A stretch of DNA of 64,000 nucleotides, from positions 1 through 64,000 of IMG/VR virus record IMGVR_UViG_3300005546_000004. One strand, 5' to 3'. Positions 18,686 to 36,187 of this stretch are shown here, one piece after another. Made by a program: the position numbers and the translations under genes. Each line of letters opens with the position of its first letter. Position 1 is the first letter of the stretch. Source of the DNA: a virus. Below the pieces are notes generated by a model, which was given only the letters and a program-made list of their open reading frames with translations, had not been told where the DNA came from and made no database searches.

Positions 18686-20200
18686 GTGCAGACCAAGACG
18701 CGGGCGCAGCTGTTCGCCGAGCTCGCGGATCCGCCCGAGCGCCGGTGGCGCAACGACCCGATCCGGTGGGCGATCGAGCGCGCCCGGATCGAGATCTGGT
18801 CGAAGCAGCGCGAGATCCTCGAGGCCGTCCGGGACCACCCGCGGGTAGCGATCCCGTCGTGCCACTCCGCGGGTAAGTCGTTCACCATGGGCTGCCTAAC
18901 GTGCTGGTGGCTGGACGTTCACCCGATCGGCGAGGCCCGGGTAATCAGCACGGCGCCGACCTCGAAGCAGGTCGACGCCGTGCTGTGGAATGAGATCAAC
19001 CAGCACCACGCGCGCATCGGCCTGCGCGGCCGCACGAACAAGAACGAGTGGTACTTCGGCCGGTTCATGGCCGGGCTGGGGCGTAAGCCGCCGGACCACG
19101 TCGAGGCCGCCTTCCAGGGACTGCACGCGCTCTACCTGCTGGTGATCTTCGACGAGGCGTACGGCATCCCGAAGCACCTGTGGGACGAAGGCTCGTCGCT
19201 GGCGTCGAACCGCAACGCGCGGATGGTCGCCGTCGGCAACCCGGACGGACCCGGCGAGTTCGCCGAGATCTGCAGGCCGGGCTCCGGTTGGCACGTCATT
19301 CCGATCTCGTACCGGGACACGCCGAACTACACCGGTGAGCAGGTATCGGACCGGCTGCGGGACATGCTGATCTCGCTGGACTGGGTCGAGGACCGCCGCC
19401 GGAAGTGGGGTGAACAGTCGGCGCTGTTCCAGTCCAAGTGTGAGGGCAGGTTTCCGGCCGAGGGTTCGCCGTGGGACGTCATTCCGCACGCGTGGATCGC
19501 CCGGTGCCGTTCGCTGGAGCTGGTCGCCGACGGACCGATCGAGGCCGGCGTCGACGTCGCGGCCGGCAACGACCGCACGGTGGTCACGGTGCGGCGCGGT
19601 CCGGCGGTGCTGCACGTCGAGTGGTTCGTCGACGCGGACCCGATGAAGACCGTCGGCCAGGTCGCCAACGCCCTGCGCGACTGGAAGGTAACCAGCACGA
19701 AGGTCGACTCGATCGGCGTCGGCTGGGGCATCTACGGCCGGCTCAGGGAACTGTCCCGCCGGGTCAGTCCAGACGGCGGGGTGCACGACTCAGACGTGGT
19801 GCCGATCAACGTGTCGCTGGCGCCGACGCCCGGCAACGAGGAGCGGTTCTTGAACCGGCGCGCCGAGATGTGGTGGCTCGGACGGGAGCTGTCGCGCCTG
19901 CAGCGCTGGGACCTGTCGCGGCTGCCGGAGGACCTGCAGGACGACGTCATTCACGAGCTGGCGGCCCCGCGCTACGAGATCCTCGACTCGAAGGGCCGCG
20001 TGAAGATCGAGCCGAAGGACGACATCATTAAGCGACTCGGGGTCTCGCCCGACCTGGCGGAGTCGCTGCTGCTCGCGTTCGTTCCGGCCAACTGGACGGC
20101 CGAGACCAACACGCAGGCGCTGGTCGACGCGCCGAGCCTGCTGGAGTCGCTGTCCGCGTTCGACCAGGTCCACGCCGGCTCGTGGTGGCTGCGCCGGTAG
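18686..20200 (+). CDS. terL: Terminase large subunit
   Basis: ATPase Walker A-like CHSAGKSF; C-terminal nuclease domain (DSIGVGWGIYGRL). 504 aa. A GGGACC-GGAA-GGTCCC hairpin follows the stop. Confidence 0.85.
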   Translation: MQTKTRAQLFAELADPPERRWRNDPIRWAIERARIEIWSKQREILEAVRDHPRVAIPSCHSAGKSFTMGCLTCWWLDVHPIGEARVISTAPTSKQVDAVLWNEINQHHARIGLRGRTNKNEWYFGRFMAGLGRKPPDHVEAAFQGLHALYLLVIFDEAYGIPKHLWDEGSSLASNRNARMVAVGNPDGPGEFAEICRPGSGWHVIPISYRDTPNYTGEQVSDRLRDMLISLDWVEDRRRKWGEQSALFQSKCEGRFPAEGSPWDVIPHAWIARCRSLELVADGPIEAGVDVAAGNDRTVVTVRRGPAVLHVEWFVDADPMKTVGQVANALRDWKVTSTKVDSIGVGWGIYGRLRELSRRVSPDGGVHDSDVVPINVSLAPTPGNEERFLNRRAEMWWLGRELSRLQRWDLSRLPEDLQDDVIHELAAPRYEILDSKGRVKIEPKDDIIKRLGVSPDLAESLLLAFVPANWTAETNTQALVDAPSLLESLSAFDQVHAGSWWLRR

Positions 20201-22197: not shown

Positions 22198-22365
22198 ATG
22201 AGGGACCTCGAGGACCGCTGGGGACGCTGCGACCGTCACGGCGGACTGATCGACGAGTGTGAGTTGCTGTACCGGCCGGCCGCGGACGAGCTGATCTGCG
22301 ACGACTGCGCGGCGGACGAGATCGCCGAGCTCAACGAGCTCGCGCGGCGGGCGGTGAGGTCGTGA
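22198..22365 (+). CDS. small zinc-ribbon protein
   Basis: ATG after GGGAGAACGAAG. C..H..C...C..C pattern in 55 aa. Confidence 0.45.
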   Translation: MRDLEDRWGRCDRHGGLIDECELLYRPAADELICDDCAADEIAELNELARRAVRS

Positions 22366-22820
22366 ACCGGGTGATCGGCCTCCACGGAACCGCGCTGGTG
22401 ACGTGCCCGCAAATGCACTCGCACGGTCTAGTGCCGCTGGACGTCGCGTACGACGCCGAAGAGCCGCTGACGATCGCCCTGGTCGTCACCGACGCGGCGA
22501 ACAAGACCTACGCGTGGCAGCTGTCGCGCAACCTACTGCTCGAGGCAGTCGTCGACGGCGATAAGAACGACTGCGCGGTCGTCGGCCTCGGCGACGTGAC
22601 GTTGAAGGTCCGAACGTCGGATCCGTGCGCGATCACACTGCGGCTGCGGGTCGCCGATCCGAGCCGTCCGCAGCTGCGTAGCTTCGTCTACCTGATCGTC
22701 GATCGCGACCAGCTGCGCAGGTTTGTCCTCGACACGTACGAGGTCGTACCGGCGCACCTCGAGGTCGACCACCTGCCGCTGGACGACGTCGACCGGCTAG
22801 TCGAGGAGGAGTGGAAGTGA
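22362..22820 (+). CDS. SsgA-like protein (SALP; SsgB-like sporulation-specific cell-division protein family)
   Basis: Pattern VAYDAEEPLTIALVV...YAWQLSRNLLLEAV...GDVTLKV...AITLRL..FVYLIVDRDQLRRFVLDTYEVVPAHLE parallels SsgB (YDTADPYAVHATF..WVFARDLLAEGL..GDVRVWP..VALSSP..LESFLKRTDAAVPPGTE). 152 aa. Confidence 0.6.
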   Translation: MNRVIGLHGTALVTCPQMHSHGLVPLDVAYDAEEPLTIALVVTDAANKTYAWQLSRNLLLEAVVDGDKNDCAVVGLGDVTLKVRTSDPCAITLRLRVADPSRPQLRSFVYLIVDRDQLRRFVLDTYEVVPAHLEVDHLPLDDVDRLVEEEWK

Positions 22821-23517: not shown

Positions 23518-25143
23518 GTGACCGATCGCATCGGACGCAGCCGCCCGCGCGGCGAGCTGGCGCTGTCCGGCGAAATTCTGCCCGCGGACGTCGTCACCGC
23601 GTCGGCGCAGCTACTGTTCGGCACGGCCCGCGAGTCGTACGCCACCCAGTACCGCACGTGGCAGGACGAACTGTGGAACTACGCCAAGTCCGTCGGCGAG
23701 TACGGCAGCGTCATGGACTGGTTCGCCGCCGGCTGCTCGCGCATGCATCTGGTCGCGGCGCTCCAGCGGCCCGGCCTGCGGGAACCCGAGCCGATCACCG
23801 ACCCGGCGGATCCGGCCGCGCGGCTCATGCACCGGCTGACGATCAACGCCCGCGGCGGCGAAACCCAGTACCTGTACAAGTGGGGCCGGCACCTGGGCAC
23901 GCCCGGCGTCGGCTACTTCGTCGCGTACACGCGCGACGAGGACAACGTCGAGGTGTTCGACGTCAAGTCCGCCAAGCAAATCCGGCGCTCGACGCAGCCG
24001 TTCACCGACCCACGGACCGGCCGCGACGTCCAGGGACGCGACGGCCGCGTCCTGCTCGGCTACGACGTCATGGTCGGCCAGAACGAGTGGCTTAAGCTGC
24101 CCTACTCGCAGCTCGTCGGCCGGATCTACCGCCCCGACGACGAACTGGACTACGAACCGACGTCGTGGTCCCGCGCCGCGCTGACGACGCTGCGCGAGAT
24201 CGACCTGCTGAACCGGCACATCGTCGCGACGCTGCTGTCCCGGCTCGTCTTCAACGGCATCCTGTTCATACCCGACGAGGTCACGTTTCCCGTCAACCCG
24301 CAGTTCAAGGACGCCCCGGATCCGTTCATCGCGGAGCTGCTCGCCGTCGCCTCGCGCGGCATCCGCGACCCGGGTTCGCCCGCCAGCGCGATCCCGTTCC
24401 CGCTGCGCGTCAAGTCCGAATTCATCGAAAAGTTCAAGCACCTGATCATCGCCACCGGCATCGACCCGAAGATCATCGAGGCGCGCGCGGCGGCGATCAC
24501 CAACCTGTCGAAGCAGCTGCCGGCGCCGCCCGAGGCCATGCAGGGCAAGGGCGATCTGAACCACTGGAACGCGTGGAAGGACTCCGAGGACAACGTTAAG
24601 ATGTACTTCGGTCCGACCCTGGAGATCCTCGCCGGCGGGCACACGGACGTCTACCTGCACCCGATGCTGCGCGCCGCCGGCCAGCCGATCGACCGGCCGG
24701 AGGGCCGGGTCATCTGCTGGTACGACGACTCGGACCTGGTCGTCAAGCCCGACAACTCGGAGAACGCCAAGTCCGCCCGCGAGGTCGTCGCCATCCGAAC
24801 GGACGCGTACCTGGAGCAGCTCGGCCTCGACAAGGCCGACAGGCCGTCCAAGTCCGAGCGCCGCGAACTTATCCTGACCGACCTGGCGCGACAGGGACTG
24901 CCGACGCCGGACTCGTACTACCTGCTGTACCCCGAGGACAAGCCGGATCCCGTCGACGTAGCGACCGACGCCGCCGCCCGGGCCGGCCAGCTAGATCCGG
25001 CGACCGGGCGTCCCGCGATTCCCGCTGGCCCCGGGCAGCAGCCGGGACGCCCGGGCGCCGACCAGTCCAACGTCCGCGAGCAGGCGCCGTCGACGGGCCG
25101 AGGCACGCCGTCGCGGCCGCCGCAGCCTCCCCGAGGAGGTTAG
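23518..25143 (+). CDS. Portal protein
   Basis: 541-aa protein placed between terminase and head-morphogenesis genes; acidic Pro/Gln-rich C-terminal tail typical of actinophage portals. Confidence 0.75.
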   Translation: MTDRIGRSRPRGELALSGEILPADVVTASAQLLFGTARESYATQYRTWQDELWNYAKSVGEYGSVMDWFAAGCSRMHLVAALQRPGLREPEPITDPADPAARLMHRLTINARGGETQYLYKWGRHLGTPGVGYFVAYTRDEDNVEVFDVKSAKQIRRSTQPFTDPRTGRDVQGRDGRVLLGYDVMVGQNEWLKLPYSQLVGRIYRPDDELDYEPTSWSRAALTTLREIDLLNRHIVATLLSRLVFNGILFIPDEVTFPVNPQFKDAPDPFIAELLAVASRGIRDPGSPASAIPFPLRVKSEFIEKFKHLIIATGIDPKIIEARAAAITNLSKQLPAPPEAMQGKGDLNHWNAWKDSEDNVKMYFGPTLEILAGGHTDVYLHPMLRAAGQPIDRPEGRVICWYDDSDLVVKPDNSENAKSAREVVAIRTDAYLEQLGLDKADRPSKSERRELILTDLARQGLPTPDSYYLLYPEDKPDPVDVATDAAARAGQLDPATGRPAIPAGPGQQPGRPGADQSNVREQAPSTGRGTPSRPPQPPRGG

Positions 25144-25145
25144 AC

Positions 25146-26705
25146 GTGGCCGCCCCGCGGATCGTCCGCGGCTGGGACGAACACGACATCCGGCGGCGCG
25201 AGGCCGTCTTCGATGGCCTGGTCACCAAGGCCGTCCGCATGTCGCTGCGTGCGCTGACGGCCGACCTGCGGCCGATCGTCGCCGCGTACAGGCCGCAGCT
25301 GACGCTCGGCGAATCCGGCACCGTTGCCGCGACGTGGCAGGCCTACGTCGCCGGCGAGCTGTACCCGTACCTGGTCCAGACGTTCGTCGACGCCGCCGGT
25401 GACGTCGCCGAGAACACCGAGGCCGCGACTGGCGCGACGCTGCCGGCCGTCGGCTACTCGTACGCCGCGGACTACCTAGCCTCGGCGACCAATCGACTGT
25501 GGAACCTCGGCGACCAGGTCTGGAACCAGGTCCGTGACCAGCTCGCCGTCGGCTACGACTCCGGCGAGTCGATGACCCAGCTCGCCGCGCGGATCCGGGA
25601 TGTCTCGAACCTGACGGAGGCCAAGGCGCTGGCCGTCGCCCGGACCGAGGTCGCGTCCGCCGCCAACCAGGGCACGCTGTACCAGATGCTGGTCGCCGGC
25701 TTCACCGACCAGGAGTGCGAAAAGGGCTGGCTGGCGACCGAGGACGAACGCACCCGACCGGCGCACGTCGCCGCGGACGGGCAGTGGGTCGGCATCCTGC
25801 AGCCGTTTAACGTTGGTGGCGAGGGCCTGCAGTGCCCCGGCGACCCGACCGGGCGGCCGGACAACATCATCAACTGCCGGTGCACGCTGCAGTTTCGCTT
25901 TCCCGACGACAACGACGAACCGCAAACCGCCGCCGGCCAGCCGCGCGACGCCTACGGTCGCTTCATCCGGGCGTCCGCGGCTCCCGCCGGCCTCGACCAG
26001 TTCCGCTGGGTCGAGGACGAGCACCCGCGCCTACCGGACGGCGAGTTCACCGACAAGTTCGACTGGCTGTCGTTCGCCGACGCCGACAAGATGCACGACG
26101 ACATGCAGCGCGGCAGGCCGTGGAGCGGCGCGCAGTTCGACGCGCTGACCGAGTACTCCCGCAGCGCGTACGCGCCGATCAACATGTACCTACGCGGACA
26201 GACGCACCCGGACGACGACGCATCGGCGCGAACGCTCGCGCACATCGACGACATTCGAGCCGCGATGCGGCCGATGACGCGCGACCTGAAGGTCCAACGC
26301 GGCCTATACGCCGACGCGTTCGAGGGCGTCAAGACCGCCGGCGACCTGGAGAAGATGATCGGCCGCACGTTCGAGGAGCGCGGCTTCCTGTCGACGACGA
26401 TCGATCCGAGGTTCCTGCGACACACGAAGACCGCGCGCACCGATCAGATCGTGACGCTGGAACTGGACGTGCCGGCCGGTACGCCCGCGGCGTACCTAGC
26501 CGCCGGCCAGTCGCACCAGCACCCCGGCCTCGCCGGCGAGCGCGAGCTGCTGCTCGACGCCGGAGCCCGGTTCGTCATCACCGGCGTCGAGGAGCGCACC
26601 GTCGACGGACGCGACCGGTTCATCGTCCTCGCGCGCGTCGTACCGCCACCCGCTAGAACCTGGCGGAAGCTTCACCTGCCGTGGACGAAGGGAGGCTCCG
26701 CGTGA
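25146..26705 (+). CDS. MuF-like head morphogenesis protein fused to a C-terminal R-S-E ADP-ribosyltransferase toxin domain
   Basis: MuF/SPP1-gp7 hallmarks TRPAH and INCRC. C-terminal ART motifs: YSRSAYAPINMYLRG (aromatic-x-IN-xx-LR), FLSTTID (STS), GERELLLDAG (ExE). Confidence 0.8.
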   Translation: MAAPRIVRGWDEHDIRRREAVFDGLVTKAVRMSLRALTADLRPIVAAYRPQLTLGESGTVAATWQAYVAGELYPYLVQTFVDAAGDVAENTEAATGATLPAVGYSYAADYLASATNRLWNLGDQVWNQVRDQLAVGYDSGESMTQLAARIRDVSNLTEAKALAVARTEVASAANQGTLYQMLVAGFTDQECEKGWLATEDERTRPAHVAADGQWVGILQPFNVGGEGLQCPGDPTGRPDNIINCRCTLQFRFPDDNDEPQTAAGQPRDAYGRFIRASAAPAGLDQFRWVEDEHPRLPDGEFTDKFDWLSFADADKMHDDMQRGRPWSGAQFDALTEYSRSAYAPINMYLRGQTHPDDDASARTLAHIDDIRAAMRPMTRDLKVQRGLYADAFEGVKTAGDLEKMIGRTFEERGFLSTTIDPRFLRHTKTARTDQIVTLELDVPAGTPAAYLAAGQSHQHPGLAGERELLLDAGARFVITGVEERTVDGRDRFIVLARVVPPPARTWRKLHLPWTKGGSA

Positions 26706-29700
26706 CCGCGCTGACCGATCCGCGCAACGCGCTGCTCCGCGTCGTCGACGGCGACGGCAAACCGCTGACGGCCGCCAAGCACGCGCACGCTCCGTCCGCC
26801 ACCAAGTGGAAGGAGTGGCTGCACCCGCGCGATCCGATCGGACAGTTCACCCAGAAGGGTGGATCCGGCGCGACGCCCGGCAAGGCGATCAAGATTAACA
26901 CGACGGTCGTCTACAAGACCAGCTACCAGCACGGCCAGGTCGTCGCCGTCCAGAAGACCCCGTTCGGCGCCAGGCGCGAACTGCGCTGGAACGCGCACGA
27001 CGCGATGCCCGGCTCCGGCGTCGCCGGCCGATTCGAGATCTGGAGCGACTACGGCGCGCCCGACCAGGGGATGACGCAGGCGCAGGTCCTCGGTAAGGGC
27101 GGTACGTACTCCAGTTTGAAGAACGACCCGGGCTGGTTCGCGCCGCAGAAGCCGACGATCGTCACGTCCGAGGAATTACCGCACGTCAAGATAACCTCGC
27201 CCGCGGACGACACACTCTACGACGACCTGATCGGAAACTACGACGACGGAACGCCGCAGACCTCGGAGGATGCGATCGCCGCGATCCAGGACATGAATGG
27301 TCCTGAGTTCGCGCAGTTTATGAACGATCACTTCGACGAGCTGCAGGCCGGCGTCTGGGTCGACCTGTCCGACCCGGAGAAGAAGGCCCTCGCCGACAAG
27401 GCCAAGAGCCTGCAGGTCGATCCCGCGGGAAAGGGCTTCTCGCCCGACGATGTCAATGGCTTCGTGTACCTGGAGCCGTTCAATCAGATCTACGAGCTGC
27501 AGCAGGGTAAGACCGCGCTACCTCAGTTCCACGAGATGAACGTGGCTGAGCTCAACGACTGGTTCGACGCGCTGACGGTCGAGGACTACCAGGCGCTCAG
27601 CGTAGACGACCAGGACAAGCTCGCCCAGGTCGCCGACGAGGCGTACGGCACCTACGGCAACGGCCATCCCCTCGATCAACTCAACGAGATCATCGAGCTA
27701 CATAACAAGCACAGCCTACCTAGTGATGATCCTAGTGATTATGACCACCAACAACTGGTCGCTCAAGAGATCGATCACCTCGGTAAGAGTGATTTTCAGA
27801 CGTGGCTCTACGATAACATTTACCCGGAGAGCTGGAACAGCCTACATGTAAGTGCGCAGGAGCACATCGCGGGTAAGGCTGGTGACCTAGATCTAACTCA
27901 CGTGCTCGACGACCTGATCTCGGGCGGCACCGGCATGGTCAGCGACGACGTGCCCCATACCGGCGGCCTCGAAAACCTAAGTAAGGCCGACTTTCAGGAA
28001 TGGATCGACACGTACGTCGACTCGGCGATGTGGCAGACCGGCTTCGACGCGACCACGAAGAAAAAGATCCTCGACACCGCGCTCGGTCACGGCCTCTACG
28101 GTCACCTAACGCAGCTGACCAACGACGTGATACCCGAAACGTCACTCGCCGGTCCGTCCGGTCCTGCGCCGTCCGTCGTCGAAAAACCCGACGTAAAGAA
28201 ACTACAGTTCACCGGCCTGGCGCTCGGAACGCACGGCGCGCAGGTGATGTACCTACGCGGAAGCGCGACGCACGCGGACTACGGTCAAACGTACCTGTTT
28301 AAGCCGACGCCGAAGAGCCTCGACTTTACGGTCGAGGCCGACGTCGCCGTCTCGAAGCTGCAGCAGAAGTTCGGCATCGCGGCGCCCGAGCTGTGGGCCG
28401 TCACGCTGCCCGACGGCACGTACGGCTCGCTGCAGCGCATGATCAAATCCGAGCCGGCGTTTCCCGGAAAGTTCGACGCGAAGAGTCTTACACCTAGCCA
28501 GGTCAACAGCCTGGTCAGGCACCAGGCGTTCGACTGGCTGGTCAGCAACCACGATAGCCACGCCGGCAACTTCATCACCGACTCGGATACCGCCGAACTG
28601 ATCGCCGTCGACAAGACCCAGGCGTTTAAGTTCTTCCCCTACGACCAGCTGTCCAGCACGTACCACCCGAACACCGTCGAGCAGCCGCCCGTCTACAACA
28701 AGCTGTGGCAGGCGTTCGAAAAGGGCGATGTCGACATAGCGCCGCCGCAACACGGCCTCTACGGCATCGGCATGGACCTGCTCGCGATGACGCAGATCTC
28801 CGACGCCGAGCTGCGCGACGTCCTGCGGCCGTACGCCGAGGCCGCCGCGAAGCGCGGCAAGCTCATGACGGTTCACCCGCCCGGCGTCACCGTCGACGCG
28901 CAGGGTCTCCAGGTTCATCCGAACAGCGTCGAGGAGTTCCTCAACCGTGCCGTTAGCCGCAAGAACAGCCTCTTCGAGGACTTCGACAAGTTCTACGTGG
29001 ACGAGCTCGCCAAGCGCAACAAGCACCTCGGCCTACCGCCTGGGACGCCGGGCGCGTCGTCGATCAAGCAGGTCGCGGCGCCGGCGGCGAACGTCGTCGC
29101 GCCGAACCCTCCCAACGGCGGCATCGGCACCAGCGTTCCGATCAAGCTCAACACCAAGACGGTCCACACCGCCAAGTACCAGCACGGCGAGATCGTCGCC
29201 GTCCGCGAGGTCGGCGCCAGCGAAATTCAGCAGCTCTTCTGGGACGAGGGCAAGAAGAAGTTCGGCGTCCGAATCGGCTACGCGGGCGGATCGTGGACGA
29301 ATACGCACTACGCGTCGAAGAAGATCATCTACGACGCCTACAAGGGCGACACGAACTGGCGGGCGCCGCAGCCCGGCTCGACGATTCAGGACGAAAAGTA
29401 CGGACCGAGCTCCGGAACGACGAAGACGTCGCCGTCGACGCAGAAGATTGTCAAGCTGACGGCGAAGGACATTCAAAATCAGTACGGCACTGTACCGACG
29501 CAGTTGCCGGACGACGAAGCCTGGGGTCTAGCCAAGAACGTCAAGAACTACAGTCCCCTGAAGACGGTCAGCCTCACTACCACGTCGCCGACGATCTTTA
29601 AGGCGCTCGCGTGGGCCGTCGCCAAGCACAACCACGACTACCCGAACTCGCCGCAGCTCAACCTGCTGCAGGGCGTCAAGGTGCTCGACGCGAAGTCCGT

Positions 29701-30448
29701 GCCCTACGGCGGTCAAAACGCGGGTCTCTACGAGAAGAAGGTCGTCGACTGGCTGCAGACCGCCTCCGGAAAGAAGAACGGTCAGTCGTTCGTCGAATGG
29801 GCGCAGGCCGAGGTCGCCAAGGGACCGGCGCCCGCGGCGCAGCCGACCGCCGTCGCGTTTAAGAACGCCTACGAGCTCGGAGTGCCGAACTCGAAGGTCA
29901 CTAAGTTCGGCAACATCACGCCGTACGACGCGCAGGCTATGAACGTTGTCATGCGCGCGAAGCACGGCGACTGGACCTCCGAGCAGTTCAGCGCGATCCA
30001 TAGCTACACGGGTGGTGGCTACCACTCGATCAACGGGTCGCTGCGCAAGGGCGCTCCGAACCACTACGCCGCCGTGCTGCAGAGCGCGATGGCGCCCGTC
30101 TCGAGCAGCTTCACCGTGCACCGGGGCACCGACGGCGTCGGCGACCTGATCAAGAACACGATGACCGAGGAGCAGCTGCAGGCGCTGGTCGGTAAGACGA
30201 TTACGGACCCGGCGTTTCTGTCGTCCAGCGTCGGCGGATCGGCGGCGTTTAGCGGGAGAAAGTTTACGCTGCACGTCGACGTCCCGGAGGGTACACCCGG
30301 CGCGTACGTCGCCAACCACAGTTCGGTTGGTCCCGGAGAGCGTGAGTTTCTGCTCGCCGCCGGCCTCAAGTACCGGATAGTTTCGATCGACAAGAACGCG
30401 AGCTCCGTATCGACCAAGTACCGGATACACCTGAAGGTGGTGAACTAA
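26681..30448 (+). CDS. 1255-aa multi-domain virion protein: duplicated YQHG-containing domain, possible kinase-like domain, C-terminal R-S-E ADP-ribosyltransferase
   Basis: Repeats KINTTVVYKTSYQHGQVVAVQK (26891-26957) and KLNTKTVHTAKYQHGEIVAVRE (29141-29210). SNHDSHAGNF...AVDKTQAF (D-x-H-x-x-N catalytic-loop-like motif, about 28540). C-terminal ART motifs YTGGGYHSINGSLR, FLSSSVG, GEREFLL (29940-30445). Confidence 0.7.
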   Translation: MDEGRLRVTALTDPRNALLRVVDGDGKPLTAAKHAHAPSATKWKEWLHPRDPIGQFTQKGGSGATPGKAIKINTTVVYKTSYQHGQVVAVQKTPFGARRELRWNAHDAMPGSGVAGRFEIWSDYGAPDQGMTQAQVLGKGGTYSSLKNDPGWFAPQKPTIVTSEELPHVKITSPADDTLYDDLIGNYDDGTPQTSEDAIAAIQDMNGPEFAQFMNDHFDELQAGVWVDLSDPEKKALADKAKSLQVDPAGKGFSPDDVNGFVYLEPFNQIYELQQGKTALPQFHEMNVAELNDWFDALTVEDYQALSVDDQDKLAQVADEAYGTYGNGHPLDQLNEIIELHNKHSLPSDDPSDYDHQQLVAQEIDHLGKSDFQTWLYDNIYPESWNSLHVSAQEHIAGKAGDLDLTHVLDDLISGGTGMVSDDVPHTGGLENLSKADFQEWIDTYVDSAMWQTGFDATTKKKILDTALGHGLYGHLTQLTNDVIPETSLAGPSGPAPSVVEKPDVKKLQFTGLALGTHGAQVMYLRGSATHADYGQTYLFKPTPKSLDFTVEADVAVSKLQQKFGIAAPELWAVTLPDGTYGSLQRMIKSEPAFPGKFDAKSLTPSQVNSLVRHQAFDWLVSNHDSHAGNFITDSDTAELIAVDKTQAFKFFPYDQLSSTYHPNTVEQPPVYNKLWQAFEKGDVDIAPPQHGLYGIGMDLLAMTQISDAELRDVLRPYAEAAAKRGKLMTVHPPGVTVDAQGLQVHPNSVEEFLNRAVSRKNSLFEDFDKFYVDELAKRNKHLGLPPGTPGASSIKQVAAPAANVVAPNPPNGGIGTSVPIKLNTKTVHTAKYQHGEIVAVREVGASEIQQLFWDEGKKKFGVRIGYAGGSWTNTHYASKKIIYDAYKGDTNWRAPQPGSTIQDEKYGPSSGTTKTSPSTQKIVKLTAKDIQNQYGTVPTQLPDDEAWGLAKNVKNYSPLKTVSLTTTSPTIFKALAWAVAKHNHDYPNSPQLNLLQGVKVLDAKSVPYGGQNAGLYEKKVVDWLQTASGKKNGQSFVEWAQAEVAKGPAPAAQPTAVAFKNAYELGVPNSKVTKFGNITPYDAQAMNVVMRAKHGDWTSEQFSAIHSYTGGGYHSINGSLRKGAPNHYAAVLQSAMAPVSSSFTVHRGTDGVGDLIKNTMTEEQLQALVGKTITDPAFLSSSVGGSAAFSGRKFTLHVDVPEGTPGAYVANHSSVGPGEREFLLAAGLKYRIVSIDKNASSVSTKYRIHLKVVN

Positions 30449-31156
30449 TTGGGGGCGCTGACTGACAACGAGTCGCTCGAGTTCACGGTCGTACCTGACG
30501 GTGAACTGATCGGCTACACCGAGGACGAGGCCTACGCGTTCCTGGCCGGCGTCGGCCCCGAGACGTCGACGACGAAGCTGCCGCCGTTCGTTGCCGCGGC
30601 CGACGGTGCGCGGACCGGCGCGATGATCGGGCTGGTGCCCTCCGAGGCGGATGCGGACCGACTTGCGGTCGACGGCGGCGAGCCTGCGGACGAGCTTCAC
30701 CTGACGCTGCTCTACCTCGGCGATGCGGTGGATGTTTCCGACGAGGCGCGCGCCGCGATCGAGGTCGCTGTACGGCGCTACGCCGGCGAACCGATCACGG
30801 CGGAGGCGTTCTCCGTCAACATGTTCAACCCCAATAGCGACGACGGGGACATGGCGGTCGTCCTCGGCGTCGGCAACGACGGCGGACCTGCGCTGCACCG
30901 GCTGCACACCGACGTCGGCGCAGCGGTCCGTGGGACCGGCGGCTTCGAGCTGCCCGAACAGCACGAACCGTGGGTGCCGCACGTCACCTTGGCGTACACG
31001 GACGACCTGAACCTCGCGGCGACCGTCGTCGACCGCGTCGGACCGATCACGTTCGACCGGATCCGGCTCGCGTTCGCCGACCATGTCGTCGACATTCCGC
31101 TCAGCTCCGCGAGTTCACAGCCCGGTGCTAGCGTTAGCCACGCGGGCGGGAGGTAA
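30449..31156 (+). CDS. 2H phosphoesterase superfamily protein (LigT / CPDase / Acb1-like fold)
   Basis: Two H-x-T-x motifs: HLTLLYLGD (30697) and HVTLAYTDD (30978). TTG start after AAGGTGG. Confidence 0.65.
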   Translation: MGALTDNESLEFTVVPDGELIGYTEDEAYAFLAGVGPETSTTKLPPFVAAADGARTGAMIGLVPSEADADRLAVDGGEPADELHLTLLYLGDAVDVSDEARAAIEVAVRRYAGEPITAEAFSVNMFNPNSDDGDMAVVLGVGNDGGPALHRLHTDVGAAVRGTGGFELPEQHEPWVPHVTLAYTDDLNLAATVVDRVGPITFDRIRLAFADHVVDIPLSSASSQPGASVSHAGGR

Positions 31157-31160
31157 CGCG

Positions 31161-33251
31161 ATGCCCTGGAAGGTTAAGCGACGCGGCGTCAAGTTCTGCG
31201 TCGTAAAGATCGCCGACGGGAGCACCGTGGCGTGTCACGGCTCCGAGGATCAGGCGCAGGCGCAGCTGCGCGCGCTGTACGCCTCCGAACCGGACGCGCG
31301 CGAGCTCGCGCTCGCGGTCGAGTACCAGGCCGCCGTTGACGAGCTCGAGCGCGCCCAGCTGATGGAGCTGGCCCGCGAGGGTGACGTCAACCTGCCCGGC
31401 GCCAGCCACAACCTGCGCGACTACTGGGTGCATGGCGAGGGCGCCGTTAAGATTCGCTGGAACACGGAGGGCGACGGCACGCGCTGCATCAGGCACTTGC
31501 GGAAGTACGTCCGCGACCCGGGCGGCCTGTGTCAGGAGTATCACCGGCTCGCGACCGGTAAGAGTATGCACCCCCACCCGGGTCGGCTGACGGAGGCTGG
31601 AGAGATGAACGAATTCGCCGACAACCCCGACGAGCCGTACGGCGACGTCAAGTACGCCGACCCGGGCTACCAGGCCGACGGCCGCAAGCGCTACCCGATC
31701 GATACGCCCGAGCACATCCGCGCGGCGTGGTCGTACATCAACATGCCGAAGAACTCGGCGAAGTACTCGGCCGACCAGCTTAAGTCGATCAGGAACAAGA
31801 TCAAGAAGGCGCTGACGGGGATCGGCGCCGAGGTCGCGGCCACGGTCACCGTCGTTACCGCCGCGCGCAAACCGAAGCCCGCGCCGACCGCGGACGACGT
31901 TGAGGACTGCGGACCGAATCAGCACCGGATGCCCGACGGCAACTGCACGGACGACGCGGAGATGCCGTCGCGCGAGTACGCCGACGAACCGTGGGAGGGC
32001 GTCCTGACCGTCGAGGGTGTCGAGTCCGGCGACGGACGCATGTTCTCGCTCGGCTCGCTGGACTGGGCGGAGCTGCCGCTGCCGCTGATGTACCAGCCCG
32101 CCAACGTCGGCGGCCACAACGGCTCGGTTATGGTCGGCGAGATCACGCGCGCCGCGCGCCGCGGCAACGAGATCTACGGCTGGGGCCGCGTCTTCGGCCC
32201 GGAGCTCGCCGGAGAGCACGGCGACGGCATCCGGGCGACGATCGAGACCGGCGGGGTCTCCGTCGACGTCGACAAGGTCAAGGACGCCGACGTCGAAATG
32301 GTCTACGCCGACGGCGACGACGGCGGCTTTACGTCCAAGCCCGAGATGACGATCTTCCACCGGGGCCGGGTCCGCGGCGCGACGCTCGTTGCGTTCCCGG
32401 CGTTCGTCGAGGCGAAGCTGCGCTTCACCAACCAGGTAGAAACCGCGTCGTACGCCGCGAGCGACGACACCGAGGGTGCGACTGCCGACTGCGGCTGCGG
32501 CGACGCGCCGCTGACCGCCGCCGGATCGCACACGATCACGCTACCGGACCTGCCGCCGAAGTCGTGGTTCGATAGGCCGAGCGACGTCAAGATACACGGC
32601 GCGCTGACGATCACCGACGAGGGACGCGTCTACGGCCGCCTGGCGCCGGCCGGAGTCACGCACCGCAATCGGCCGCGGCGCGTACCGATGGGCAACGTCG
32701 ACTACTCGAACTGGATGAAGGGCGAGACCATCGTCGAGGGAGGCGAACGCGTCGTCACCGGCGTCATCACCGGCGACTGCGGACACGCCGACGAGCAGAA
32801 CTACGGGACGCTCGCCAACCGCAAGAAGCACTACGACAACTCGTGCTCCGTCTTCGCCAACGTCTGCATCGGCGAGGACGCCGACGGCGTCTGGGTCGCC
32901 GGCGCGCTGCGGCACGGCGTCACCGGCGAGCAGGTCGCGACCGCGCTCGGCTGCAGCCTGTCCGGCGACTGGCAGCCGCACCAGGATCGCCCCGGCGTCA
33001 ACGAGTTCATCGCGGCGCTGCTCGTACCGGTACCCGGCTTCCCAATGGCCCGGACGCAGCCGTCCGTCACCTACAACGACGGCCTGGTCACGGCGTCGGC
33101 CGTGCCGATCCGGTTCGGCCTACCCGAACCGCCGTCGATCGAGGAGCAGGCCCGCCAGGCGCTGCGCACCGCCAAGGCGACGCTGCTGACGCGCGTCGGC
33201 ATGGATCCGTACAGTCGAAAGCGAGAGATCATGTCCCAGGTAGGAGGCTAA
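31161..33251 (+). CDS. Putative capsid maturation protease / scaffold-region protein
   Basis: ATG after GGGAGG. About 696 aa. Position between MuF/ejection proteins and the major capsid protein. Acidic, coiled-coil-prone segments. Confidence 0.5.
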   Translation: MPWKVKRRGVKFCVVKIADGSTVACHGSEDQAQAQLRALYASEPDARELALAVEYQAAVDELERAQLMELAREGDVNLPGASHNLRDYWVHGEGAVKIRWNTEGDGTRCIRHLRKYVRDPGGLCQEYHRLATGKSMHPHPGRLTEAGEMNEFADNPDEPYGDVKYADPGYQADGRKRYPIDTPEHIRAAWSYINMPKNSAKYSADQLKSIRNKIKKALTGIGAEVAATVTVVTAARKPKPAPTADDVEDCGPNQHRMPDGNCTDDAEMPSREYADEPWEGVLTVEGVESGDGRMFSLGSLDWAELPLPLMYQPANVGGHNGSVMVGEITRAARRGNEIYGWGRVFGPELAGEHGDGIRATIETGGVSVDVDKVKDADVEMVYADGDDGGFTSKPEMTIFHRGRVRGATLVAFPAFVEAKLRFTNQVETASYAASDDTEGATADCGCGDAPLTAAGSHTITLPDLPPKSWFDRPSDVKIHGALTITDEGRVYGRLAPAGVTHRNRPRRVPMGNVDYSNWMKGETIVEGGERVVTGVITGDCGHADEQNYGTLANRKKHYDNSCSVFANVCIGEDADGVWVAGALRHGVTGEQVATALGCSLSGDWQPHQDRPGVNEFIAALLVPVPGFPMARTQPSVTYNDGLVTASAVPIRFGLPEPPSIEEQARQALRTAKATLLTRVGMDPYSRKREIMSQVGG

Positions 33252-33537: not shown

Positions 33538-35238
33538 ATGGCGGACAAGCCCGAGTTCGAGCTGAGCCTCCCCGAGGACATCACGACCCTCGGCGTGGAG
33601 GACCTGGACAAGTTCGTAGTCGCCGCGCGTAAGCGCGTCCGGCAGCTGTACGACAGCGAAACCGTCGAGCTGTCGGCCCAGACGGCCGAGGCCGACGAGA
33701 TGGCCGAGCTCGCCGACGCGATCGAGAAGGTCAAGCTCGAGAAGGCGCGCCGCGACAACGTCGCCGCCGCCAACACCGACAAGCGCGCCAAGGCCAAGGC
33801 CGCGCTCGAACTCGCCGATGAACCGGACGGCGCCGACGCCGACGTCGACGCGGCGGACGACGTCGACGACGAACCGATCGCCGCGTCCGGCAGACCGAAC
33901 GGCGGCGCTAAGACGCGTCCGCGCAGCGAAACGGCCAACTTTCGCAACCCGTCGCTCGCCGACGCGCAGCGCCAGGCCGCGCAGCCGCCCGCGCCGCGCC
34001 GCGACAGCGTCCTAACGGCGTCGGCCGACATCCCGAACATCGCGGCCGGCTCCAAGCTCGACGACATGGACGCGCTGGTCGGCGCGATGACGTCCCGCGC
34101 CCGCATGCTGCCGATCGGCGCCAAGGGTGACGATGCGCAGCGCTATCCGATCGCATCGCTGGTACGCGACTTCCGGTACACGCTCGGCCTCGACTCGACG
34201 CCCGCTCAGGTCAACGAGGTCCTGACCGCCGCGACCAACCCGGAGATCCTAACCGCGGCCGGCGGCTGGTGCTCCCCGTCGGAGATCTCGTACGACTTCT
34301 ACAACATCGTCTGCGAGGACGGCACGCTCGACCTGCCGACCGTCGGCATCAACCGCGGCGGCATTCGGTGGCCCACCTCGCCGAGCTTCGCCGACGTCGT
34401 CCTCGGCGGTGCCCTGTGGTCCTGGAACGAGACGCAGGACATCGCGGCCGTCACCGGCACCGCGCAGTCCGGCACTAAGACCTGCGGCCGCGTCCCGTGC
34501 CCCGCCTTCAATGAGGCCCGCCTACACTGCGACGGTATCTGCCTGACAGTCGGCAACCTGACCGAGGACGCCTACCCCGAGGTCATCGCCAACCACACCA
34601 AGCTCGTCATGGCGTCGCACTACCACAAGCTCAACCGGGCGCGCATCAACGAGGTCCGCACCTTGTCCGCGGCGTTCACCGTCACCAACGGCAGCGCCGG
34701 CGCCGGCGTCGTCGCCAATGTCCTCGGCGCGCTCGAGCTGCAGGCCACGGACTACCGTGAGAAGTACGCCATGTGCAAGGATGCCGTCCTCGAGGTCGTC
34801 GCGCCGCGCTGGCTGCGCGGGCCAATGCGCTCCGACTTGCGCCGGCGCATGGGCTCGCCGACGGACCAGCTGTCTGCCAGCGACGCGATGCTCATGGCGC
34901 TGTTCGACTCGATCAACGTCCGCATCCAGTGGGTCAACGACTACCAGGTCCGCACGACCGGCTTCCCCGGCGTACCCGGCACGCTGCCGACGGCGTGGCC
35001 GCTGACCGTCGAGTTCATGATGTGGGCGCCCGGCACCGTCGTCATGGGCCAGGGCCTACGCCTCGACCTCGGCATCATCCGCGACTCGGTGCTCAACGCG
35101 ACCAACGACCACACCGCCACTTGGATGGAGGAGTGCTGGTTGATCTTCCAGCCGGGGCACGAGGTCCGACGGCTCACCGTCAACATCTGTCCCGACGGCA
35201 CGACCGGCGCGGCCGACCTGACCGAGTGCGGCGTCTAA
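33538..35238 (+). CDS. Major capsid protein (HK97 fold) with N-terminal scaffold-like (delta-type) domain
   Basis: 566 aa. N-terminal charged/coiled region (ADKPEFELSLPEDI...EKVKLEKARRD) then capsid core. Position after protease; highest expression-type codon bias. Confidence 0.75.
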   Translation: MADKPEFELSLPEDITTLGVEDLDKFVVAARKRVRQLYDSETVELSAQTAEADEMAELADAIEKVKLEKARRDNVAAANTDKRAKAKAALELADEPDGADADVDAADDVDDEPIAASGRPNGGAKTRPRSETANFRNPSLADAQRQAAQPPAPRRDSVLTASADIPNIAAGSKLDDMDALVGAMTSRARMLPIGAKGDDAQRYPIASLVRDFRYTLGLDSTPAQVNEVLTAATNPEILTAAGGWCSPSEISYDFYNIVCEDGTLDLPTVGINRGGIRWPTSPSFADVVLGGALWSWNETQDIAAVTGTAQSGTKTCGRVPCPAFNEARLHCDGICLTVGNLTEDAYPEVIANHTKLVMASHYHKLNRARINEVRTLSAAFTVTNGSAGAGVVANVLGALELQATDYREKYAMCKDAVLEVVAPRWLRGPMRSDLRRRMGSPTDQLSASDAMLMALFDSINVRIQWVNDYQVRTTGFPGVPGTLPTAWPLTVEFMMWAPGTVVMGQGLRLDLGIIRDSVLNATNDHTATWMEECWLIFQPGHEVRRLTVNICPDGTTGAADLTECGV

Positions 35239-35287: not shown

Positions 35288-36187
35288 GTGGTCAGCCAAC
35301 GCGACTGGACGACACCGCCTAAGTTCGAACCTCTCCAGTACCGGCTACTCGACGCCGTCGACGGACCGTACCCGTTTCCGGGGCACACCAAGCTCGGCGC
35401 GACATACACGGCCGATACGTGCACGTTCCCGCTCGAGACGTCGACGATCTGCGCCTCCGGCGTCGGCGCCGTCAAGACGACGACCGGCAGCATCCCCAGC
35501 CGCGCCACCGACCCGTTCGCGATCTACACGTGGCTCGACTGCCCGCTGATCGGCTCCAATCCCGACGAACTGATGGACCGCGTCCGGCAGGGACACGCCA
35601 ACAACGCGCCGACGGTCGTCGAGCGCATCTTCTGGACCGGCGGCGCCCTGCCGACGTCGCAGCACCTGGCCGAGGACGTCGCGATCACCGATGTCGTCGG
35701 CGGTTCGACGGTCACGCTGCAGACCGCCGCGATCCAGATCACCGGCACCTTCGACGTCGTTGAGGCGATCGGCTTGCTCGAGGAGGCCATGGCCGGCTGC
35801 TACGGCGGTACGCCGCTGATCCACGTACCGCGCCGGGCGACGGCGCACCTGGTCACCAACCACCTGATCAAGGAGAAGGGAAGCCGGCTCTACACCGTCG
35901 GCAACAACTCGGTCGTCGTACCGGCGCCCGGCTACGCCCGCACCGGACCGGACGGTACGACGCCCGCCGCGGGCCTGGCGTGGTTCTACGCGACCGGCTC
36001 GGTCAAGGCCTGGCGCACCGACGTGCAGATCTTCACTGGCCAACCGAGCCAGTACGTCGACCGCGCGATCAACGATCCCACGCTCATCGCGGAGCAGCGG
36101 TTCATGCTCGGCTGGGACTGCTGCCACTTCGCGATCCTCGTCAATCTAGGCGGCGTCATCACCGGCGCGGTCGGATCCGCAACGTAG
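35288..36187 (+). CDS. virion structural protein (head-tail joining region; possibly major tail or decoration protein)
   Basis: 299-aa ORF directly after the major capsid protein. Confidence 0.45.
   Translation: MVSQRDWTTPPKFEPLQYRLLDAVDGPYPFPGHTKLGATYTADTCTFPLETSTICASGVGAVKTTTGSIPSRATDPFAIYTWLDCPLIGSNPDELMDRVRQGHANNAPTVVERIFWTGGALPTSQHLAEDVAITDVVGGSTVTLQTAAIQITGTFDVVEAIGLLEEAMAGCYGGTPLIHVPRRATAHLVTNHLIKEKGSRLYTVGNNSVVVPAPGYARTGPDGTTPAAGLAWFYATGSVKAWRTDVQIFTGQPSQYVDRAINDPTLIAEQRFMLGWDCCHFAILVNLGGVITGAVGSAT

Follow-up and report, generated by a model that had tools for sequence, protein, structure and literature searches.

Gene Organization between the Portal and Capsid Genes

A stretch of 64,000 nucleotides of viral DNA (positions 1 to 64,000 of the IMG/VR record IMGVR_UViG_3300005546_000004, hereafter the window) was analyzed with the focus on the genes between those for the portal protein and the major capsid protein (MCP). 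The window is a phage genome fragment with 67% GC. The portal gene is followed by a gene for a fusion of a MuF minor head protein with an ADP-ribosyltransferase (ART), a gene for a giant protein that combines an atypical kinase with a second ART, a gene for a 2H phosphoesterase, and a gene for a putative capsid maturation protease (table 1). The first three open reading frames (ORFs) lie at the coordinates given in a first-pass annotation of the window. The start of the giant is most likely the GTG at position 26702 (VTALTD...), as indicated by the GTGA overlap with the MuF-ART stop codon, a GGGAGG ribosome binding site and the starts of the homologues. Based on this overlap, the start of the 2H gene that abuts the stop of the giant, and the start of the downstream gene at ATG 31161, the four genes form one coupled unit. 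The locus is rather likely to be a hypervariable capsid-cargo (polyvalent effector) cassette that was derived from the MuF-2H-protease head polyprotein of actinophages, a polyprotein whose parts are evidently encoded here by separate, coupled genes, with ART modules and a giant multi-enzyme protein as additions.

The first-pass annotation had described two ART genes between portal and protease. The portal assignment stands (phrog_776), and the protease label reflects homology to annotated proteases only: the downstream gene matches phrog_18402 "head maturation protease" (E = 7e-24) and, in tblastn searches, genes annotated as "capsid maturation protease (and MuF-like fusion)" in 930 actinophage records.

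Table 1. Coordinates of the cassette genes, their domains and motifs, and the flanking head genes in the window.
Feature	Position	Strand	Match or remark
Large terminase	18686-20200		
Portal protein gene, upstream anchor of the cassette	23518-25143	+	phrog_776, E = 2.3e-76
MuF-ART fusion gene, 519 aa	25146-26705	+	Pfam Phage_Mu_F and ADPrib_exo_Tox
MuF (SPP1 gp7-like minor head protein) domain, aa 127-248	25524-25889	+	PF04233, E = 5e-15
Post-MuF junction: PQTAAG (aa 259-264), QPRDAYGRF (265-273), HPRLPDGEF (293-301)	25920-26048	+	Candidate processing/module-boundary motifs
ART domain 1, aa 327-498	26124-26639	+	PF03496, E = 7e-19
Giant polyvalent protein gene, 1248 aa from GTG 26702 (ORF open from 26681, 1255 aa)	26702-30448	+	
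Short N-terminal leader (VTALTDPRNALLRVVDGDGKPLTAAK), then WLHPRDPIGQF	26702-26848	+	
YQHG beta-rich domain, copy A, aa 60-165	26858-27175	+	BLAST against copy B, E = 2e-9
Acidic helical region, about four weak 55-aa repeats, aa 166-500	27176-28180	+	
PI3/PI4-kinase/HipA-like atypical kinase domain, aa 505-796	28193-29068	+	K541, D625-x-H627-x-x-N630, D644
YQHG beta-rich domain, copy B, aa 813-906	29117-29398	+	
Conserved helical pre-ART region, aa 907-1085	29399-29935	+	Function unassigned
ART domain 2, aa 1086-1255	29936-30445	+	ADPrib_exo_Tox aa 1099-1250, E = 3.5e-18
2H protein gene, 235 aa	30449-31156	+	Begins on the base after the stop of the giant
Shared cargo leader of about 50 aa of the 2H protein (…GYTEDEAYAFLAGVGPETSTTKLPPFVAAAD)	30449-30604	+	
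2H phosphoesterase domain; H84-L-T-L (30698-30709), H178-V-T-L (30980-30991)	30611-31153	+	PF13563, E = 6e-14
DUF6582 and putative capsid maturation protease gene, downstream anchor (ORF from 31083)	31161-33251	+	PF20223, E = 2e-18
PLTAAG, directly before the C-terminal domain of the putative protease	32508-32525	+	
Major capsid protein gene, long N-terminal scaffold-like region	33538-35238	+	NF033847 MCP_Sipho, E = 2e-143
MCP candidate processing motif VLTAS/AD	34009-34029	+	Conserved in distant MCPs
MCP candidate processing motif ILTAAGGW	34246-34269	+	Conserved in distant MCPs

Two ADP-Ribosyltransferase Domains

The MuF domain of the MuF-ART protein also matches TIGR01641 (phageSPP1_gp7, E = 1e-8, under the cut-off of the model). 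Both ART domains score above the Pfam cut-off for ADPrib_exo_Tox (68.4 and 66.1 bits, cut-off 23.4) and share 28.5% sequence identity (E = 7e-18). The catalytic sets consist of R385 (VQRG), S416-T-T and E465-R-E467 in MuF-ART and of R1148 (VHRG), S1181-S-S and E1220-R-E1222 in the giant, and both R-S-E sets align to the motifs of Lmo0066 and iota Ia; the two domains have the ART fold. Complete R-S-E motif sets had been proposed for both proteins; the two triads are indeed complete, and the segments YAPINMYLRG and YHSINGSLRKG that had been listed with them form a conserved upstream helix. The YxxINxxLR pattern was therefore rejected as the catalytic arginine motif, the true arginines being R385 and R1148. 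An ExE motif is associated with arginine specificity (C2, iota and Alt enzymes) and a QxE motif with the C3 enzymes; predicted from the ExE motif by itself, both ARTs probably modify host proteins on arginine.

A counterpart of MuF-ART (80-92% identity) was found in a related locus (L004), and the R, S and ExE residues of ART 2 are invariant in four giant homologues. The ART of the giant matches the sequences of Lmo0066, iota Ia, CdtA, C3 and Vip2 in the PDB; the closest solved ART is Lmo0066, described as an ART-ARH (ADP-ribosylglycohydrolase) toxin-immunity pair (PDB 8za7). The junction that follows the MuF domain in the window has the pattern acidic-xTAA[GK]...HPRDxxGxF, which is also present 3' of MuF in three related loci (L005, L009, and L012).

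The Giant Protein and Its Kinase Domain

Exact-protein look-ups for the 1255- and 1248-aa products of the giant gene returned no record, and close homologues are rare (four only, among 5.8 billion clusters). The ART had been placed at the extreme C-terminus of a 1255-aa protein, which agrees with the position of the ADPrib_exo_Tox match, the length being more likely 1248 aa. The reported duplication of a YQHG domain was likewise borne out, with the YQHG residues in both copies; copy A was found in all giant homologues, and copy B was modeled as a beta-rich unit (pLDDT 55-74). The repeats of the acidic helical region (27293-28156, aa 205-492) follow the pattern (S/G)xx[DE]FxxW[FLI][DN]…W…L, five of the six repeat pairs reach Smith-Waterman z values of 2.5-3.9, and no Pfam family matched the region. 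The pre-ART region is 39-92% conserved across all giant homologues and was modeled as helical by AF2 with low confidence. With a kinase, an ART and three uncharacterized domains in 1248 aa, encoded between the portal and MCP genes, the giant has the composition of a polyvalent protein.

The D-x-H-x-x-N segment that had been called kinase-like belongs to a real kinase domain with a bilobal fold, an ATP lysine, a DxHxxN catalytic loop and a metal-binding Asp. The comparison figures for this domain were 13.3 for Helicobacter pylori CtkA, 12.3 for Fam20, about 12 for mTOR and PI3K, 11.5 for actin-fragmin kinase and Legionella MavQ, and 10.0-11.4 for HipA-type kinases; a sequence/profile search of the PDB with the kinase profile returned no match. 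Within the family, K541 is nearly invariant, D625-x-H627 and D644 are invariant and N630 is either N or Q. Since the catalytic set is conserved, the enzyme is predicted to be active, and by the chemistry of the family it would phosphorylate a host protein on Ser/Thr, a lipid being the less likely substrate. The window kinase scores 18.4-22.9 bits with HipA_C (cut-off 30.5) and 17-20 bits with HipA_2 (cut-off 27), and weak matches to PF00454 (PI3_PI4_kinase) occur in three of 27 family members, the window domain being under the threshold. Based on these scores the kinase falls into neither the HipA nor the PI3_PI4_kinase family of Pfam. Membership in the HipA family was rejected since the scores lie under the cut-off, no HipA N-terminal domain matched and the neighboring genes are head genes.

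An exhaustive HMMER search identified 2,117 cluster representatives of the kinase family at E ≤ 1e-3 and 843 at E ≤ 1e-30. The best 150 are mostly 1,000-2,400 aa long, one family member reaches 6,354 aa, and some carry two copies of the domain. Sampled members pair the kinase with SLT or transglycosylase, ParB_N, or VG15 and ART domains, and related kinase folds in BFVD belong to phage proteins named portal, head-morphogenesis, ART or Nudix. Homologues of the kinase (aa 485-796) were identified in three giants of mycobacteriophages, McProf gp54 (annotated "minor capsid and ADP-ribosyltransferase fusion"), Onyinye gp16 ("ADP-ribosyltransferase") and Phrappuccino gp195. Overall, the kinase is a common module of giant virion-associated proteins that lacks a Pfam family of its own.

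The 2H Phosphoesterase

The identification of the third protein as a 2H phosphoesterase with HLTL and HVTL motifs (aa 84-87 and 178-181) was upheld: it scores 52.8 bits with the Pfam family 2_5_RNA_ligase2 (PF13563, cut-off 27), and H84, T86 and H178 are invariant in an alignment of seven homologues. It had further been likened to the Acb1-type anti-CBASS proteins, an analogy that was not supported. The Pfam Acb1 model (PF23474) gives 15.4 bits with a cut-off of 27 (best E-value within the 2H family 0.0027), and membership in the Acb1 family was rejected on this score. The LigT/ThpR equivalog model TIGR02258 gives 32.7 bits (E = 6e-8, cut-off 65.7), and a search of the PDB returned weak LigT matches with the 2H profile (E = 0.005) and no match with the single sequence. 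The nearest solved or curated relatives by sequence are the LigT/ThpR RNA 2',3'-cyclic phosphodiesterases, to which the protein is related without being an equivalog.

The 2H lineage was found by tblastn in 363 phage records, including 210 from Mycobacterium, 128 from Gordonia and 17 from Streptomyces phages. The proteins that contain it are usually annotated "capsid maturation protease and MuF-like fusion protein", in Gordonia phages "RNA ligase/head maturation protease". In gp11 of Streptomyces phage BayC a MuF domain (104-261) is followed by the 2H domain (277-442) and then by the protease region, and gp15 of TurkishDelight is organized alike. A specific partnership between ART and 2H, as the adjacent genes of the window had suggested, was not supported, since none of the three proteins inspected in detail (BayC gp11, TurkishDelight gp15, and Baddon gp18) contains an ART module. 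Based on this distribution, the 2H domain is an old passenger of the actinophage head polyprotein that is catalytically intact by motif and has no specific ART partner.

Exchange of Modules among Related Loci

A total of 11 related loci were compared, four identified via protein homologues, six via the portal and further ones via the leader described below, for which scans of metagenome and viral sets added three new loci. Some of the loci are partial or redundant (L008/L010 and L019/L020). Portals that are 57-97% identical anchor the related loci, and the genes between the anchors differ (table 2). The central slot of the giant is occupied by either the kinase or an ART, and the third gene encodes a 2H, an ART, a Zeta kinase or a 2H-Zeta protein. 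Based on these architectures, the interval is a hypervariable effector cassette on a constant frame.

Table 2. Architecture of the cassette genes in the window and in related loci.
Locus	First gene	Second gene	Third gene
Window, L004	MuF-ART	leader-YQHG-helical-kinase-YQHG-preART-ART	leader-2H
L005	fusion of MuF with the kinase giant of the window type	fused with first	leader-ART
L006	MuF-NUDIX-ART	giant, ART replacing kinase	leader-ART
L007, L020	MuF-ART-ART	giant with internal ART	leader-Zeta-toxin kinase
L009, L011	MuF fused to ART-ART giant	fused with first	leader-2H-Zeta kinase
L012	MuF…ART-ART, 1382-aa fusion unlike those of L005, L009 and L011	fused with first	leader-2H
L018	not on contig	not on contig	leader-2H-protease, fused
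L021	MuF and unknown C-terminal region	1,244-aa giant, C-terminal ART	leader-2H-protease, fused

The NUDIX domain of L006 lies exactly between two HPR motifs that are adjacent in the MuF-ART protein of the window. A Zeta-toxin/AAA_33 P-loop kinase (PF06414, E = 5e-20) is attached to the cargo leader in L007 (11776-12765) and L020 (6001-6990), and a Zeta kinase is fused behind 2H via a SLTAAAL linker in L009 (7369-8889) and L011 (16416-17936); the pairing of a 2H domain with a P-loop kinase resembles RNA end-healing modules. In L018 (2033-4582) and L021 (5971-8220), leader-2H and the DUF6582/protease protein are joined in one product, an intermediate architecture between the undivided polyprotein of cultured Streptomyces phages and the separate genes found in the window.

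An ADP-ribosylglycohydrolase gene (ARH; PF03747, E = 6e-51) is located 5' of the portal gene, beside an SsgA-like gene, in L007 (958-2034) and L008 (674-1750) and is also present in L020. It occurs only in the locus type that has four ART domains and a Zeta kinase, and such an immunity-like gene was absent from the window and from most of the loci searched, the L007/L008/L020 clade being the exception. By analogy with the ART-ARH pair of Lmo0066, the ARH of this clade could provide self-protection or immunity against the ARTs of the phage itself.

Leader and Boundary Motifs

The 2H protein begins with a leader that is 72% identical to the leader of the small ART in L006 (E = 5e-23) and 49% identical to that of the ART in L005 (E = 1.6e-9). 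The remaining parts of the proteins sharing this leader are unrelated, and the homology between the 2H protein and the L006 ART ends right after PP[FI][VT]AA. The leader is also present on the Zeta-kinase, 2H-Zeta and 2H-protease proteins, and it occurs on every third-position cargo protein (nine locus types, the L018/L021 protein continuing into the protease). The leader of the giant resembles the start of the 2H and small-ART leader: a shorter version (xTALTDPxNxxxxVV…PLTAA) was found on all five unfused giants that were inspected at the sequence level, including those of L004, L006 and L007, and is missing from the MuF-fused giants of L005, L009 and L011. With regard to capsid targeting, the shared leader ends in a conserved xTAA motif, where it may be cleaved and which the protease and MCP contain as well.

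A motif [LQIV]-[TV]-A-A-[GKA] follows each MuF domain and each leader and lies between 2H and Zeta in L009, and (W..)HPRxxGxF is usually located 5-25 residues past it. A count over 23 cargo proteins gave 16 HPR motifs, compared with 0.08 expected by shuffling; the motif is located at 25938-26048 and 26822-26848 in the window and in cargo proteins of L004-L012 elsewhere. P[LIQF][TV]AA occurs four times in the proteome of the window (0.29 expected), the four sites being confined to the genes for MuF-ART, the giant and the protease and three coinciding with module boundaries. Furthermore, h-[TV]-A-[AS] is kept amid divergent flanks at two places, in the protease proteins (those of BayC and TurkishDelight included) at the junction that precedes the C-terminal domain, and in MCP where the low-complexity N-terminal region ends (VLTAS/ADIPN), distant Streptomyces and Gordonia MCPs included; the conservation holds in phages whose protease and MCP are only about 25-30% identical. 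Judged from the sequences, VLTAS/ADIPN is a better candidate for the maturation site than LTAAGGW of MCP, which may be a conserved structural motif. The xTAA and HPR motifs are candidate processing sites of the capsid protease that may also mark recombination boundaries, a reading by analogy with the capsid-targeting sequences of T4 and with VENN-type demarcation motifs. As the xTAA type of motif recurs in the protease and the capsid protein, proteolysis at these sites seems likelier than a role as recombination landmark only. A search of the literature found neither an experimental mapping of actinophage capsid-protease sites nor a description of the HPRxxGxF motif.

Proposed Capsid Loading and Alternative Explanations

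In the proposed mechanism, the MuF-ART, giant, leader-2H and protease proteins would be co-translated late with the head proteins, in keeping with the operon-like coupling that was observed. The MuF domain would bring MuF-ART into the procapsid at the portal, and the giant and the 2H protein, which are not fused to MuF, would enter via the shared N-terminal leader. The capsid maturation protease would trim the leaders and separate the modules at [LQIV]-[TV]-A-[AS], often before HPRxxGxF, and would act on itself and on the capsid protein as well. Once released, the enzymes would leave with the DNA during infection, like T4 Alt. By the chemistry of their families, the two E-x-E ARTs would ADP-ribosylate host proteins, the kinase would phosphorylate a host target and the 2H protein would hydrolyze 2',3'-cyclic-phosphate RNA ends or phosphodiester-linked nucleotide signals. 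Host counter-pressure may drive the module exchange at the conserved boundary motifs that is observed as a pattern among the loci.

Most likely, the cargo is packaged in the capsid and enters the host together with the DNA. The fusions among the relatives contribute to this prediction: the giant is fused to MuF in L005, L009 and L011 and the 2H protein to the protease in L018 and L021. The case for a capsid-associated package is strengthened because the same modules are covalently linked to MuF or the protease in relatives and the unfused cargo shares a leader. Previous predictions of MuF-, portal- and protease-linked ART, 2H and Nudix domains agree (PMC5512222, PMC9503650, PMC5576092, PMC7302621). 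Several points weigh against this interpretation. Virion incorporation, cleavage and injection are inferred for all cassette proteins, and a folded multi-domain protein of 1248 aa would have to pass through a siphovirus tail channel. The protease label of the downstream gene comes from annotation homology, and no Pfam or NCBIfam peptidase model matched it. The genome has 67% GC and the TAA-type motif is short and rich in Ala, its occurrences are not independent because the loci are phylogenetically related, the TAAGGW of MCP may simply be structural, and the motif code is not uniform since the 2H proteins lack the HPR motif. In addition, packaged NAD/ADP-ribose enzymes were found to be enriched in myoviruses, not siphoviruses (Iyer et al. 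2022, PMC9503650).

The predominance of myoviruses in that survey, the tight coupling with late head genes and the indirect case for packaging are all compatible with enzymes that are expressed late and act in the producing cell without being injected, for example in assembly modification or late RNA processing, their position reflecting timing only. This is an improbable explanation, given that the fusion of modules to MuF, portal-adjacent proteins or the protease is hard to explain without entry into the procapsid and that the leader sits precisely on the unfused cargo genes; moreover, the homologue McProf gp54 is annotated "minor capsid" and the kinase-bearing Phrappuccino gp195 is encoded directly 3' of gp194, annotated "virion structural protein". 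The locus might also encode a classical MuF polymorphic toxin (Jamet et al. 2017), whose ARTs would serve a temperate phage against competitors, in superinfection or in kin discrimination while an immunity protein shields the lysogen. The first-pass annotation had described MuF-ART as polymorphic-toxin-style, and the N-terminal MuF and C-terminal VIP2-type ART fit this description, as does the swapping of C-terminal domains among relatives; the ARH beside the head module of the L007/L008/L020 clade could be an immunity protein, Lmo0066 being part of an ART-ARH pair. The remainder of the comparison is less favorable: no ORF of less than 150 aa lies directly 3' of the fusion gene, which is followed by the translationally coupled giant, and neither an ARH nor another candidate immunity gene was found in the window. 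No integrase or repressor was detected among about 30 window genes scanned (some small ORFs and 3 kb beyond the window were outside the scan), the replication module looks lytic, and a contig scan with the portal revealed no prophage relative in 185,579 species genomes (GTDB). MuF-VIP2 fusions are also documented in lytic actinophages (PMC7302621). We regard a polymorphic toxin of this kind as very improbable, and capsid loading as part of an effector cassette remains the preferred reading.

The activities of the cargo allow for alternatives as well. A HipA-type toxin that phosphorylates an aminoacyl-tRNA synthetase and arrests host translation is an unlikely role for the kinase: in addition to the HipA_C scores and the missing Pfam match to a HipA N-terminal domain, no adjoining HipB- or HipS-like antitoxin gene was noted, and the metal-binding motif IDKGQAF is of the "IDxG" type of PI3/4 kinases. 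Actinobacteria are among the few bacteria with phosphatidylinositol (PI) in their membranes, and addressable capsid loading (leader plus xTAA/HPR sites) might inject a widespread and hitherto undescribed family of type-II-PI4K-like kinases that phosphorylate PI or phosphatidylinositol mannoside (PIM) lipids of the host in place of proteins, so that the envelope would be remodeled at DNA entry; this idea is a long shot. For the 2H protein, an Acb1-type anti-CBASS or anti-cyclic-oligonucleotide nuclease delivered with the genome is possible if doubtful. The 2H fold with both HxT motifs conserved, weak subthreshold matches to Pfam Acb1 in five of seven family members, the role proposed by Iyer et al. 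for 2H domains fused to MuF or portal proteins, and an early delivery that would fit the clearing of immune second messengers speak for it; the Acb1 model scores of 15-18 bits (cut-off 27), the closer LigT/ThpR relatives and the 2H domains of L009 and L011 that are fused to a P-loop Zeta/AAA_33 kinase, like RNA-repair end-healing modules, speak against it. Degradation of nucleotide second messengers in general is a possibility that we hold with similar reserve, and the hydrolysis of 2',3'-cyclic-phosphate RNA ends, that is, RNA-end processing, is tentatively preferred. It was placed slightly ahead because the 2H-Zeta/AAA_33 fusions recall the end-healing combination of a cyclic phosphodiesterase (CPDase) with a polynucleotide kinase.

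Comparison with Known Systems

The closest functional parallel is T4 Alt, which enters the procapsid, is trimmed by the prohead protease, is ejected with the DNA and modifies host proteins before phage expression (see also PMC5512222). The window shares with T4 an Alt/VIP2-type R-S-E ART with an ExE motif that is encoded with late/head genes, and the proposed route is alike. The differences are that MuF carries one ART of the window and the other forms the C-terminus of a multi-enzyme protein of 1248 aa, that the phage is an actinobacterial siphovirus-type phage (MCP_Sipho), and that the targeting signal would be a leader of about 25-50 aa unrelated to the capsid-targeting sequence of T4. The MuF-VIP2 toxins (Jamet 2017; the EFV toxin of Enterococcus faecalis; Microbacterium phages Percival, Goodman and Johann) have the same N-terminal MuF and VIP2-like C-terminal ART and variable C-terminal modules, whereas the scans of the window revealed neither an immunity ORF nor a sign of lysogeny, two further cargo genes follow the toxin gene, and exchange takes place in internal slots and separate leader-tagged genes, not at the MuF C-terminus alone.

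The polyvalent proteins (Iyer et al. 2017, PMC5512222) are similar in being very large virion-module proteins that combine a kinase, an ART and uncharacterized linkers and are predicted to be injected, and relatives of the giant pair the same kinase with ParB_N, SLT and ART domains. Their kinase belongs to a C-lobe-less Ser/Thr/Tyr clade (phages of Verrucomicrobia and Bacteroidetes), however, and that of the window is PI3/4K/HipA-like and atypical; the window protein also lacks an embedded zincin MPTase, its release being proposed to occur via the capsid protease. The mycobacteriophage giants McProf gp54, Onyinye gp16 and Phrappuccino gp195 share a kinase-like domain with 34-38% identity (E = 3e-18 to Onyinye gp16 in BFVD), and the first two also share a C-terminal PF03496 ART. 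They differ in their N-terminal head-attachment domains (VG15 in McProf) and lack the YQHG/pre-ART scaffold, and the Onyinye gene is located 5' of the terminase gene. Among atypical kinases, PI4K type II alpha, H. pylori CtkA and HipA are the nearest known counterparts of the window kinase.

The polyproteins BayC/TP1604 gp11 and TurkishDelight gp15 and the Gordonia "RNA ligase/head maturation protease" contain MuF, 2H (42-45% identity) and protease parts in the same order between portal and MCP, and the BayC/TurkishDelight polyprotein has L-[TA]-A-A before the 2H domain and at the protease junction. It is one protein without ART or kinase, in contrast to the four genes, two ARTs, kinase and leaders of the window. 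LigT/ThpR and T4 Acb1 share the 2H domain and two HxT motifs with the window protein, which lies under the cut-offs of both models, is leader-tagged and is linked to head morphogenesis. Finally, the VENN and DPxGL motifs of CdiA and Rhs toxins offer an analogy in that a short motif lies exactly where allele homology ends and the variable enzyme begins; their sequence and context are different, and the window motif is also found in the protease and capsid proteins.

Neighboring Genes, Host, and Lifestyle

The N-terminal extension of MCP (33538-34029, + strand) is an acidic, low-complexity region of about 160 aa that ends at VLTAS/ADIPN and is probably a fused scaffold/delta region removed during maturation; a sequence/profile search of the PDB with MCP returned no match. 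Directly after MCP (35288-36187, + strand) lies a conserved 299-aa gene without assigned function (phrog_779) that is present in all related loci. It may encode a second (pentamer or decoration) capsid protein, as the MCPs of related Streptomyces phages are annotated "major capsid hexamer protein".

Just 5' of the portal gene (22362-22820, + strand) the window encodes a protein similar to SsgA, a Streptomyces sporulation/cell-division family (PF04686, E = 6e-10), between a 292-aa gene of unassigned function and a DUF1360 protein. An SsgA match was found at the equivalent position in L004, and ORFs whose N-terminus resembles it lie at this position in L007, L008 and L012. The SsgA-like protein is a possible manipulator of host cell division. 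A SPFH/Band-7 membrane protein (17216-18100, + strand; PF01145, E = 7e-15) is encoded directly 5' of the terminase region and also in L004, which furthermore carries DUF397. The SsgA-like gene, the DUF397 of L004 and the closest cultured relatives of the 2H protein and MCP, which are Streptomyces phages, suggest a sporulating actinomycete host that is probably Streptomyces-like.

Replication genes of the window encode PrimPol/D5, a helicase, a Sak4-like protein, SSB, a thymidylate synthase (ThyX-like) and a methyltransferase. This gene set together with the lack of a detected integrase suggests a probably lytic phage, and the source of the window is probably an uncultured, lytic actinophage. 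No match to the region was obtained by megablast among 50,697 phage records.

Implications

MuF-ART fusions (PMC5576092, PMC7302621), polyvalent virion effectors (PMC5512222) and head-linked 2H, Nudix and ART enzymes (PMC9503650) are already known, and the cassette model leaves the principle of head-packaged host-modifying enzymes unchanged, presenting it in an unusually rich and modular form. Four aspects appear to be new: the combination of a PI4K/HipA-like kinase with an ART on a YQHG scaffold, the evident break-up of a head polyprotein into cargo genes with leaders, the swapping of modules like cassettes at conserved xTAA/HPR boundaries, and the size of the unmodeled kinase family.

If the model is correct, these loci would represent a natural plug-and-play series of capsid cargo in which a leader and boundary motifs carry ART, 2H, Zeta, NUDIX and PI4K-like kinase modules, and the motifs would amount to a targeting and processing code for loading foreign proteins into the capsids of actinophages, including therapeutic mycobacteriophages. 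Effectors injected by phages would gain a new class in the large unmodeled kinase family. The model would also explain why hundreds of phages of Mycobacterium, Gordonia and Streptomyces have a motif-intact 2H domain within their head polyprotein, and it would outline how a set of several effector genes could evolve out of one such polyprotein.

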